A DNA stretch of 64,000 bases from Candidatus Poseidoniaceae archaeon (GCA_965662895.1 CBFIJH010000006.1:32001-96000); one strand, 5' to 3'; counted from the stretch's first letter, positions 1 through 2,994 are shown. The notes: generated from the letters alone by a model not told the origin. Translations and numbers: made by a program.

Positions 1-606
1 GCGAATGTCGTTTTCAAGTTCCGATACCATATCGCCGTATGTCAGGAGAAGGTCCTCTGCAGCATCATCGGTTATGGCCATTTTTGCGTGCGTTCTCGAC
101 ATGGATTTGACGTGAGTTATCGTAATAATTCCGCCACCTTGCACCTCAACGCCTTCTTCTTGGTGATGCTCGTCGTCTTCATCTTCAGATGATGCTCCTT
201 TTCCCATTGAATGCAAAGCGATTTCCAGATGGCGTGGTTTGATGGTTGAAACTCGATCTCGGCCTGCCGCTTCTTCGCAGTGCCGCATGATTCTGGCTAA
301 GAATTTCTCAAGGTGCTCGATGCCGCCTTGAACGGCTGCCGATCCAACTGATTCAACGTGCTCGATTCGGTCAATCATCAATTCACGAGTGCGGTTGTAA
401 TTCAGTCGTGTTCGTTGGGCATCATCAAGCGTTTTCCGCTCAGCATCATTGTCAAGTGTGGCAGCTTCCATCGCTGGAACAAGACGGTCCAGTTCTTCAC
501 AGACAAGCGAAACAAGGCGGTCTTTGACTGCGCCTGCAATTCGCATTGAAGTGTACGTTGATGCCACAGAACCGATGTGACTAGGAGCGTATGGCTTTGC
601 GGGCAT
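1..606 (-). CDS. Multi-histone-fold protein (at least 3 histone-fold-like units), truncated by the window edge
   Basis: Not in the ORF track because it runs off the window. ATG at 606, open for 202 codons to position 1: MPAKPYAPSHIGSVASTYTSMRIAGAVKDRLVSLVCEELDRL...ERKTLDD / RLNYNRTRELMIDRIEHVESVGSAAV...EEAAGRDRVSTIKPRHLEIAL / acidic linker / IITITHVKSMSRTHAKMAITDDAAEDLLLTY. Shows RKT and TIKPRHL histone L2/alpha3 motifs. Confidence 0.75.
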   Translation of the reverse strand, partial: MPAKPYAPSHIGSVASTYTSMRIAGAVKDRLVSLVCEELDRLVPAMEAATLDNDAERKTLDDAQRTRLNYNRTRELMIDRIEHVESVGSAAVQGGIEHLEKFLARIMRHCEEAAGRDRVSTIKPRHLEIALHSMGKGASSEDEDDEHHQEEGVEVQGGGIITITHVKSMSRTHAKMAITDDAAEDLLLTYGDMVSELENDIR

Positions 607-655
607 AAAGCGCCCTCGAATTCCACCTCTTTGAACACACCGAGACGCAGTGCTC

Positions 656-1912
656 CTACCATTCAGTAAGCCAAGGCCATGCCCCATCAGCAGTAATTGG
701 CCGCATACCGTCTTCATCTCGAATCCATGTATCTTCCGAACCAATACTCCCTTCGGCATAGACGAGTTTCGGCTCGATTGCCATTGTACCACCAATCGGT
801 AGCGGCCGGTCAAAGCCTGCTGCAACGACTGGTGATTCATCAAGTTGCAATCCAACAGAATGACCGAGGAATTTTGATTGGTCTGGTTTCATCCCCATGA
901 GGTGCTCTTCATGTCCAAGTTCATGTGCAAGTGCTTGACCTTCTTGCCAAGCCTCGCTGCATAGACCTCCTTCATCGAGAACGCCTACAACGGTTTCCTT
1001 GACAACTATCATGTCTTCCAATCGCTGGTGCCATTCTTCGGACAATGAGCCCAAAGTGAACATCCTGGTCATGTCAACAACGTAGCCACGATGAACGTGG
1101 ACCAAATCAACAAGAACGGGTTCATTGGGCTTGATTTTGTTAAATCCGGAACCCATTCCAGCAAGAGGATGTGGTCCTGAACCTCCGACAGCTGAATCGA
1201 AGAAGGATGGGACACCGCCTGCTCGACCTGAAACAATGACGCCTCGGTTGCATTCAAGGGGAAATCGACGCATCTGAACTTGCCCACCAAAACCTTCACT
1301 TCGACTGATAGCTTCAGCAGCAGCAACAAGATCGAGTTCCGAAACACCTTCGCCTCCAAGTTGGGACACGGCCTCAAACATCCTGAATTGAACTTCTGCA
1401 CCGTAAGTCATCTGTTCTTGTTCCCAAGAAGATTTCACTTCCCTTAAACGATGAATGATGCCTGTAACGTCCTTGCAGTCTCCAAGGGAAGAAAGCGCTG
1501 ACGCAAATCGTTGTGCAAACGAAGAAGGTAGTTCTCCGTATTGCAAACCAGGCGCATTGGAAACACCTCGTGATTTCAAAACATCTGCAAATTGACTCAG
1601 CCGCGGGAAGCGTTCAAGTTGGAACGGTGCGTTGTCTCCACCTGCCTCAAATCGGGCACGTTCAAGAGAACGGCGGACAAAGAAAACGGGGCCGTCTCCC
1701 ACTGAACCTTCAGCTGGTACGAACAACGACCCATCTTGACGCCCTCCTGCAAAATAATACAAGTCGACGGGGTGCTGAATCAATGCGCCTGGTAATGCAG
1801 CGACCCGAAGGGCACTTGCAAGCCGTTTCAAACGGGCTTCAAGTTCAGAAACAGGTACGCGCCAATCTTCGCCTTCCGGCCCGGAAAGAATGGTGGTATC
1901 CCAATCGCCCAT
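656..1912 (-). CDS. Xaa-Pro peptidase family M24 (creatinase N-domain plus pita-bread domain)
   Basis: Metal ligands in VDLVHVHRGYVVDMTR, GHSVGLQLDE, IEPK, SEDT; GGAGGT SD upstream of ATG 1912. Confidence 0.9.
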   Translation of the reverse strand: MGDWDTTILSGPEGEDWRVPVSELEARLKRLASALRVAALPGALIQHPVDLYYFAGGRQDGSLFVPAEGSVGDGPVFFVRRSLERARFEAGGDNAPFQLERFPRLSQFADVLKSRGVSNAPGLQYGELPSSFAQRFASALSSLGDCKDVTGIIHRLREVKSSWEQEQMTYGAEVQFRMFEAVSQLGGEGVSELDLVAAAEAISRSEGFGGQVQMRRFPLECNRGVIVSGRAGGVPSFFDSAVGGSGPHPLAGMGSGFNKIKPNEPVLVDLVHVHRGYVVDMTRMFTLGSLSEEWHQRLEDMIVVKETVVGVLDEGGLCSEAWQEGQALAHELGHEEHLMGMKPDQSKFLGHSVGLQLDESPVVAAGFDRPLPIGGTMAIEPKLVYAEGSIGSEDTWIRDEDGMRPITADGAWPWLTEW

Positions 1913-1958: not shown

Positions 1959-2921
1959 TCATCCAGCCACAGGTTTTGTTTCGGTCAATTCGTAAGCAGG
2001 AGTTTGCTTGATTCGTTCTTCCGCAATCCGGCAGTATTCGGAGGACAAATCAACCCCAAAGTATGTTCGCCCTGATTGTTTCGCCGCAACACATGTTGTT
2101 CCAGAACCATTGAACGGATCGAGAACAACATCACCTGCAAACGTGTACATCTCGATGCATCGGCGCGGAAGTTCGACTGGGAAAGGTGCAGGATGATTGA
2201 CGCGACTCGCCCGTTCCGTTGCAAATCTCCATATCGATTTCGTATGATCAATGAATTCCTGTTTTTCGATGGTATCGATTCGCCCGTTTTCTCGTTCGCT
2301 CTTCGATCGTGGCATCTTGTAGTTTCCTTTGGAAAACACGAGCAAGTATTCGTGAATGTCACGCAGACAAGGATTTGATGCACTTTGGAACGAACCCCAC
2401 GCACACGATGAACCAGCACTTGCAGATTTGTCCCAAATGATTTCACCACGCATCAAGAAACCAAGATTGAGCATGATGTTGTTGATGTATGTCGAGAGTG
2501 GGATGTACGGCTTCCGCCCGAGATTGGCGACGTTCACAACCATGCGTCCACCCGGCGAAAGAACGCGATAACATTCCGAAAACACTTCCTCGAGCAAGTG
2601 AAGATATTCGTGCAGAGACAGATCATCATCGTACACTTTCGATGCATTGTAGGGAGGAGAAGTGACAACCAATTGGACGCAATTGTCTGGGAGCGGCAAA
2701 GAACGAGCGTCTTGTTCAAGGACGACATTCTCAAATTGTTGGGGAAATTCCTGAGGTGATCCAACATCACGACTTGATGCAAGATTTGCATTCATTCGGC
2801 TGTTGTAGTAGGTTGAGGAATCATGGCTTTCTCGTTTTGAGACGCCAAAGGCAGACGTAGCAGTACTCGCACGTTGTCGAGCACCTCCAAGCGAGGAAGG
2901 ATCCTCGGAACGTTTGGCCAT
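1959..2921 (-). CDS. Orphan site-specific DNA methyltransferase, beta class (N4-C or N6-A)
   Basis: Catalytic VTSPPYN precedes HPAPFP and the SAM-binding VLDPFNGSGTT; ATG at 2921 (alternative GTG at 2927). Confidence 0.9.
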   Translation of the reverse strand: MAKRSEDPSSLGGARQRASTATSAFGVSKRESHDSSTYYNSRMNANLASSRDVGSPQEFPQQFENVVLEQDARSLPLPDNCVQLVVTSPPYNASKVYDDDLSLHEYLHLLEEVFSECYRVLSPGGRMVVNVANLGRKPYIPLSTYINNIMLNLGFLMRGEIIWDKSASAGSSCAWGSFQSASNPCLRDIHEYLLVFSKGNYKMPRSKSERENGRIDTIEKQEFIDHTKSIWRFATERASRVNHPAPFPVELPRRCIEMYTFAGDVVLDPFNGSGTTCVAAKQSGRTYFGVDLSSEYCRIAEERIKQTPAYELTETKPVAG

Positions 2922-2994
2922 AACCACAACAACGTTGGTTGACTTATCACTTTTCGCGCCTTTGTCCTATATCAGACGCGCGTTTTGCAACCCA

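Follow-up and report, generated by a model that had tools for sequence, protein, structure and literature searches.

A minus-strand gene at the left end of a 64,000-nucleotide stretch of DNA from a Candidatus Poseidoniaceae archaeon (hereafter the window; G000:C6:32001-96000) encodes a 261-residue acidic chain that is almost certainly a member of the 'cluster 5 acidic quadruplet' histones of the Poseidoniales (Marine Group II), described in 'Histone diversity in the archaeal domain of life' (Nat Commun 2026;17:5254, PMC13260811; preprint 10.1101/2025.06.26.661778). The family is already known through this 2026 publication, and the gene is not a discovery. From the structural models we are confident that the N-terminal half of the chain is an intrachain handshake pair, or double histone fold. 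The C-terminal half, which follows an acidic linker, is by profile comparison a shortened internal duplicate of the N-terminal half. The genome that contains the window measures 1.86 Mb in 26 contigs and is 92% complete.

The 202 open codons that a sequence-only reading of the window had noted at its left end are real and belong to a conserved family. Direct reading places them on the minus strand, running from window position 606 to 1 and off the left edge. As that reading had advised, the genome sequence left of the window was retrieved; the frame continues there for 59 codons, giving a full gene at G000:C6:31824-32606 (L001:1324-2106, minus) plus the stop codon, with 261 residues and four histone-fold units. 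Our ORF list gives the frame as 1..855 (-) with an open 3' end, the start having been taken as an upstream TTG inside the neighboring peptidase gene. The TTG at 855 was rejected, since a frame starting there overlaps the 3' end of the peptidase gene and since the N-terminal motif M-[PA]-A-K-P-Y, conserved throughout the family, starts from the ATG at 606-604, which we therefore take as the start of the gene. A chance ORF was likewise rejected in view of 366 homologues at E <= 1e-3, matches in 169 of 301 sampled genomes of the class, and the conserved N-terminus.

Table 1 Coordinates of the histone-fold gene, its structural units and its neighbors. Window positions are counted from the first nucleotide of the window; features outside it carry genome or locus coordinates.
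Feature	Position	Strand	Basis or remark
Histone-fold gene, codons 1-202 of 261	1..606	-	start set by conserved family N-terminus
Codons 203-261 and stop codon of the histone-fold gene	G000:C6:31821-32000 (L001:1321-1500)	-	left of the window
Unit 1, aa 5-53: alpha1 8-18, L1 beta bridge 21-22 (MRIAG), alpha2 25-53	448..594	-	AlphaFold2 model
aa 54-69: L2-like R-K-T-L motif, degenerate alpha3, Arg-rich connector	400..447	-	pLDDT 57-58
Unit 2, aa 70-133: complete histone fold, T-I-K-P-R-H-L motif	208..399	-	AlphaFold2 model, Pfam, profile
Linker, aa 134-162: acidic, disordered, poorly conserved	121..207	-	pLDDT 31-47
Unit 3, aa 163-202 in the window: alpha1 163-173, L1 bridge 177-178, alpha2 180-204/207	1..120	-	models
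Unit 4, aa 208-256	wholly left of the window	-	models
Spacer, 49 nt, peptidase stop to histone ATG	607..655	-	direct sequence reading
M24 metallopeptidase / creatinase-N gene	656..1912	-	Pfam Peptidase_M24 72 bits, Creatinase_N 38.9 bits
Loci of the divergent subfamily	L039-L043 (G437, G422, G367, G443, G372)		

The spacer upstream of the histone ATG contains GAGGTGG at -27..-21 and GAGGG at -11..-7, both of which are possible ribosome-binding sites, and no TATA-like box was seen by eye in its 49 nt. In 19 of 21 Poseidoniales loci, an M24 peptidase gene is located upstream of the histone gene in the same orientation; L022 and L037 are the exceptions. Our crude ORF caller put a further frame, probably a spurious one, between peptidase and histone gene in six of the 19, and in L033 an antisense frame displaced the histone frame. 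Downstream of the histone gene the neighbors vary among Poseidoniales loci. We take the pairing with the peptidase gene as conserved gene order and not as functional coupling; from the sequence we infer that the two genes may be co-transcribed. Two genes upstream of the histone gene, at window positions 1959-2927 (-), is an N6/N4 DNA methyltransferase gene (PF01555, 171.6 bits). Downstream, left of the window and on the opposite strand, are the genes for the large and small subunits of exonuclease VII (257 and 58.8 bits; L047:2260-3507 (+) and L001:4-225 (+)), and near them are genes for a CorA transporter, an Fe-S assembly protein and a DUF3147 membrane protein, the GTG start of the last overlapping the histone stop codon.

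In the passages and tables of PMC13260811 available to us, cluster 5 comprises 130 sequences with medians of 262 residues, pI 5.2 and GRAVY -0.35 (Table 1 of that paper). The chains have four predicted histone-fold motifs, occur exclusively in Poseidoniales and one related genome outside, and are always encoded by the sole histone gene of their genome. Our protein fits these medians, with 261 residues, pI 5.40 and GRAVY -0.41. A search of its 92% complete genome with PF00808 and PF00125 gave this histone-fold locus only, besides one 12.5-bit match in a 420-residue frame on contig 11. Four histone-fold motifs are present in one chain, as a firm doublet in the N half and its five-helix duplicate in the C half; units 1 and 3 are without a firm alpha3, and the L1 loop of unit 4 has shrunk to a kink. 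By eye, the 'Single 5' entries from the genus MGIIa-L2 in the source table of PMC13260811 are near-identical to our protein, and the motif NYNRTRELM occurs at least 103 times in that table; the exact protein sequence was not found among the source-table entries listed. Length, pI, GRAVY, taxon, sole-gene status and the four folds all match, and nothing in these passages separates the protein from cluster 5.

Comparison with the catalogued histone families, which the sequence-only reading had proposed, therefore leads to the cluster 5 acidic quadruplets. That reading had mentioned a Poseidoniia-specific doublet class and held that a third or further fold would make the protein a multiplet. A lineage-specific family it is, but one published as a quadruplet, and the extra folds do not make the protein a new multiplet, as the published class already has four units (PMC13260811). 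Our literature search found no bench study of Poseidoniales quadruplet histones, and the passages available to us of Schwab et al. 2024 (PMC11390915) and of a review of double histone folds (PMC13088155) mention neither Poseidoniales nor the family.

An AlphaFold2 model of the whole chain, calculated from 37 sequences, has a mean pLDDT of 76 and a pTM of 0.48. In unit 1, helix, MRIAG loop and long helix appear as had been read from the sequence, with little or no alpha3: aa 54-69, which contain ERKTLDD, are non-helical in the model, and a clear alpha3 is missing from the unit. Unit 2 consists of alpha1 (70-80), alpha2 (89-116), an L2 bridge (121-122) and alpha3 (124-133). Superposition of aa 1-140 with solved double histone folds in VIA-align gives Z scores of 13.9-14.8 and rmsd values of 2.1-3.0 Å over 130-138 residues. 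Two Melbournevirus doublets score 14.8 and 14.1, single-chain constructs of H2B-H2A and of H2A.Z about 14, and M. kandleri HMk (1f1e) 13.9 (rmsd 2.5 Å, 130 residues); it is because of these matches that we assign the N half as an intrachain handshake pair. Lower scores were obtained with SOS (Z 12.2), SAGA Spt3/TAF-like chains (Z 10.9) and the DUF1931 protein 1wwi (Z 10.4). In a Foldseek search of the PDB with the full model, no match reached E <= 0.001, the best being H2A-H2B single chains at 3e-3, so that VIA-align was required to reveal the strength of the N-half match. With a predicted N-half doublet at Z 14-15, the case of a protein with no histone folds, considered in the sequence-only reading, does not apply; its view of a single chain in which more than two histone-fold units form pseudo-dimers within the chain agrees with the N-half doublet and the duplicated C half.

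The N half superposes at Z 10-15, over about 130 residues, on HMk (1f1e), the Marseilleviridae H2B-H2A and H4-H3 doublets (7n8n, 9cvt), SOS (1q9c) and DUF1931 (1wwi). Unlike these double-histone-fold proteins, our protein has an acidic linker followed by a second doublet in shortened form and lacks a firm alpha3 in unit 1, and the passages available to us of PMC13260811 report no predicted four-helix-bundle tetramer for cluster 5. In the viral structure library BFVD, the protein is matched best by histone doublets and longer multi-histone chains of giant viruses, with E values of 5.9e-4 and weaker. The multi-histone chains (Marseillevirus LCMAC102, 336 aa; Clandestinovirus H2B/H2A) share with our protein the presence of more than two folds per chain. 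The best match covers 326 alignment columns (E 5.9e-4), sequence identity is 9-12%, and the rmsd of 21 Å over the whole chain means that the arrangement of the modules differs or is undefined. Viral quadruplets assemble nucleosomes, according to the passages of PMC13088155 available to us, which is not predicted for the Poseidoniales protein.

At the sequence level, unit 2 was read as H2A/NF-YC-like, and the profile searches agree. A 30-member family profile matches HmvA (8bdk) among PDB sequences at E 2.1e-7 over aa 72-131, H2A.Z/H2A at E 3.9e-6 to about 1e-3 and NC2 alpha at E 8.4e-5, and all of its PDB matches fall on unit 2. In the profile alignments, the family motif k-T-i-k-p-R-H-L aligns with L2/alpha3 of H2A and HmvA; the T-I-K segment of L2 is common to unit 2 and the HmvA (8bdk)/HMfB type. 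The Pfam Histone model matches aa 67-132, and the protein stays under the gathering score of both PF00125 (20.2 vs 26.4 bits) and PF00808 (14.1 vs 21.4 bits). PF00125 matches 35 of 37 relatives at E <= 0.01. Searched singly with phmmer against PDB sequences, the protein gave a chance-level match only (CcmE, E 0.1), and it had no match in NCBIfam.

The most conserved stretch of the family is aa 54-69 (R-K-T-L-D-D ... R-T-R-L), with a majority-residue fraction of 0.87 in set A1 and 0.78 in set A2 and with conserved basic residues R57, K58, R65 and R67. An R-K-T-type L2 motif is named as a histone signature in PMC13260811. High conservation combined with low model confidence is as expected of a segment that would become ordered on a partner. 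Of 69 invariant columns in the 37-sequence alignment, 52 are located at or before aa 126.

The whole protein has a net charge of -13. Its N half is close to neutrality, with pI 6.59 and net -1, the linker (aa 136-157) has pI 4.05 and net -8, and the C half has pI 5.51 and net -4; the family-wide medians are similar. Fourteen alignment columns contain at least 80% K/R, twelve of them in the N half (K4, R22, K28, R57, K58, R65, R67, R72, R74, R118, K123, R125) and only two, R171 and R231, in the C half. In the AlphaFold2 model, most of the twelve are in or beside loops or near helix starts, positions that would correspond to the DNA-contact sites of canonical histones. HMfB-type histones and HmvA are basic singlets of ~70 residues that dimerise between chains and polymerise on DNA. 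In contrast to such nucleosomal archaeal histones, our protein is an acidic single chain of 261 residues (pI 5.40) and does not have their basic charge.

The same genome encodes MC1 (95.2 bits; G000:C7:33437-33691, L018) and Alba (49.8 bits; G000:C7:85203-85358, L017), and the quadruplet histone is therefore not the sole candidate DNA-packaging protein. No HU/HTa-type gene was found in this genome (92% complete). MC1 and Alba could cover chromatin functions without the quadruplet histone.

The explanation that we moderately favor overall is that the N module is a DNA-binding pseudo-dimer, to which the C module and the linker are auxiliary; DNA binding by the N module, judged on its own, is evenly poised. 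The N module (aa 1-135) would be a conventional intrachain pseudo-dimer, with basic residues kept at loops L1/L2 and at the alpha1 N-termini, and it would bind and bend short DNA, acting as one 'dimer-equivalent' and building no nucleosome-like stacks. The C module, from which one L1 loop and almost all of the conserved basic residues have gone, would most likely be a protein-contact or capping module, and the acidic linker would act as a flexible spacer, possibly competing with DNA. With MC1 and Alba in the cell, we would expect the protein to play an accessory architectural role and not to serve as the bulk chromatin protein. The published survey, in its passages available to us, leans against DNA binding (PMC13260811); that the N module may bind DNA is what we infer here from its sequence.

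Clearly less probable to us is that the histone fold was co-opted as a non-DNA-binding protein scaffold, as in TAFs, the SOS histone domain and DUF1931, with both modules serving as platforms for protein-protein interactions. The authors of PMC13260811 suggest such a role: in the passages available to us, AlphaFold3 predicts neither DNA wrapping nor four-helix-bundle tetramers for cluster 5, AlphaFold3 combined with MD gives no wrapping or nucleosome-like assembly, and it is stated that cluster 5 'might not bind DNA' and was maybe co-opted for another function. The overall acidity of the chain, the SOS, SAGA Spt3/TAF-like and DUF1931 structures among its neighbors, and the MC1 and Alba genes all fit a scaffold. 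Against a scaffold stand the conserved basic residues, which cluster around the loops and helix starts of the N module, the R-K-T-type L2 signature kept in unit 1, the alignment of T-I-K-P-R-H-L of unit 2 with L2/alpha3 of H2A and HmvA, and the near-neutral charge of the N module itself. PMC13260811 also states that the C termini pair between chains; our own complex prediction for two copies of the C half, which scored 0.02 vs a mark of 0.42 with controls not included, weighs neither for nor against such pairing.

The acidic spacer that had been read after unit 2 is present and disordered in the model. It is the least conserved region of the protein (majority-residue fraction 0.43 in A1 and 0.32 in A2), and its length and sequence vary among relatives. 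This variability speaks against the chaperone-like alternative of the sequence-only reading, in which the protein would be an acidic partner or antagonist of MC1 and Alba, acting through the linker and the C module; we consider it quite improbable, even though the linker is acidic throughout the family (median net -7 over 30 sequences) and both basic proteins are encoded in the same genome.

Beyond the linker, the whole-chain AlphaFold2 model shows helices at 163-173, 180-204 and 211-244, bridges at 177-178 and 248-249, and a short helix at 252-255. Unit 3, the beginning of which had been noted from the window, is thus present, and the fourth unit is outside the window. Comparison of the N and C halves with hhalign, using a 30-sequence alignment, gives a probability of 94.5 and a P value of 7.5e-8 over 94 columns, and the elements follow one another in the same order in both halves. 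The counterpart of unit 1 is unit 3 (prob 92.9, P 3.6e-7), which speaks against the possibility, considered in the sequence-only reading, that unit 3 is an unrelated helical domain, and the last part of unit 2 pairs with that of unit 4. Gaps in the hhalign alignment indicate that the C half is without the L2 segment of unit 1 and ~21 residues spanning L1 and the start of alpha2 of unit 2.

Modelled alone from 21 genome-derived fragments, the C half reaches a pLDDT of 85.5 and a pTM of 0.74 and forms five helices (model positions 11-21, 28-55, 59-73, 76-91, 99-102). Unit 4 retains alpha1 and alpha2, the latter shortened, with a kink of two residues at a conserved glycine between them. In an all-against-representatives search, the lone-half model matches the AAA+ lids of RuvBL at Z 8.3 (71 aa, rmsd 2.1 Å), which the C half had matched at Z 8.8 in the VIA-align comparison, and double histone folds at Z 7.9 (8uqe), 7.7 (1wwi), 7.6 (7n8n) and 7.5 (1q9c and 1f1e). 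The doublet matches span about 100 of 109 residues at an rmsd of 4-5 Å, the lids ~70. Given the tie between lids and doublets, and Z values that for both are in the 'middling' range for helical models, structure alone is no proof of a C-half pseudo-dimer. The top Foldseek match of the C half is HMk 1f1e (prob 0.99, E 0.16). As an argument for a C-half pseudo-dimer, the duplication signal in the sequence appears stronger than the structure matches. We read the C half as a version of the N module that has degenerated and become compact, with only one L1-L2 bridge left.

The histone fold and AAA+ lid domains have been proposed to share a deep evolutionary relationship. In the relatives there are weak Pfam matches to lids, Cdc6_lid in 2 of 37 (A1) and LonB_AAA-LID and AAA_lid_14 in P0172 aa 225-254, which may echo the structural likeness of the C half to lid domains. 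A Pfam scan of the protein at E <= 10 found no ATPase family, and a histone doublet precedes the C half. The C half thus resembles domain III of RuvBL1/2 in structure in a protein without an ATPase core and, unlike AAA+ lids, duplicates the histone doublet of the N half at the level of sequence. That the N half alone is histone-derived and the C half an unrelated AAA+ lid-type helical domain fused to it is most unlikely, for although the RuvBL lids are the best structural matches and the weak Pfam matches accord with them, the 94-column alignment of the two halves, the wider coverage by doublets, the top Foldseek match and the lack of an ATPase core all speak against a fusion.

The 366 homologues, obtained by a word-indexed search, are nearly all 257-281 residues long; those with a name are assigned to Poseidoniaceae or 'Euryarchaeota archaeon', and the automatic JGI label is 'histone H3/H4'. 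An exhaustive HMMER search of 1.84 billion cluster representatives gave only 78 matches at E <= 1e-3, consisting of full-length relatives and fragments, and the family is therefore small and closed. Within the class, the gene is found in 133 of 140 genomes of its own family, in 34 of the 114 genomes sampled from the order's sister family, in the single genome of a third family (1/1) and in none of the 45 genomes of the two remaining families. Since it was not found in 80 of the 114 sister-family genomes, several of which are 91-97% complete, the gene must be dispensable there. Presence and absence in the sister family split cleanly by genus (f2; g14-g18, g20), with 0/15 or 0/18 in several genera, which suggests lineage-specific loss.

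The source table of PMC13260811 already contains, in the part available to us, one divergent sequence from class JANQNL01 outside Poseidoniales; our phylum-wide genome search gives five genomes. These belong to two families of another class of the same phylum, measure 3.1-4.4 Mb, and encode a divergent subfamily of 233-262 residues with 20-26% identity, recovered by the subfamily profile at E 2e-64 to 8e-115. Three of the five divergent relatives pass the PF00808 cut-off. The gene neighbors of these copies differ from those in Poseidoniales.

Marine Group II are among the most abundant planktonic archaea, and we know of no cultured model for them. Their only histone-fold gene encodes an acidic four-unit chain, which PMC13260811, in the passages available to us, leaves functionally unplaced. 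To this description we add the duplication statistic, the asymmetry in basic residues between the two halves, the presence of MC1 and Alba in the same genome, the pattern of absence by genus in the sister family and the extra genomes in another class. As the N module keeps the conserved basic residues, it is the obvious construct for DNA-binding work. A bolder possibility, which we regard as doubtful, is a division-of-labour histone, in which an H2B-H2A-ordered DNA-binding pseudo-dimer would be combined with a DNA-mimicking linker and a collapsed copy sliding to an AAA+-lid-like helix-strand-helix bundle. If this were true, one natural chain would show both ends of the relationship between the histone fold and AAA+ lids, the family would be older than Poseidoniales, divergent copies being present in another class, and highly abundant ocean archaea would have a non-wrapping, self-regulated form of histone-DNA binding.
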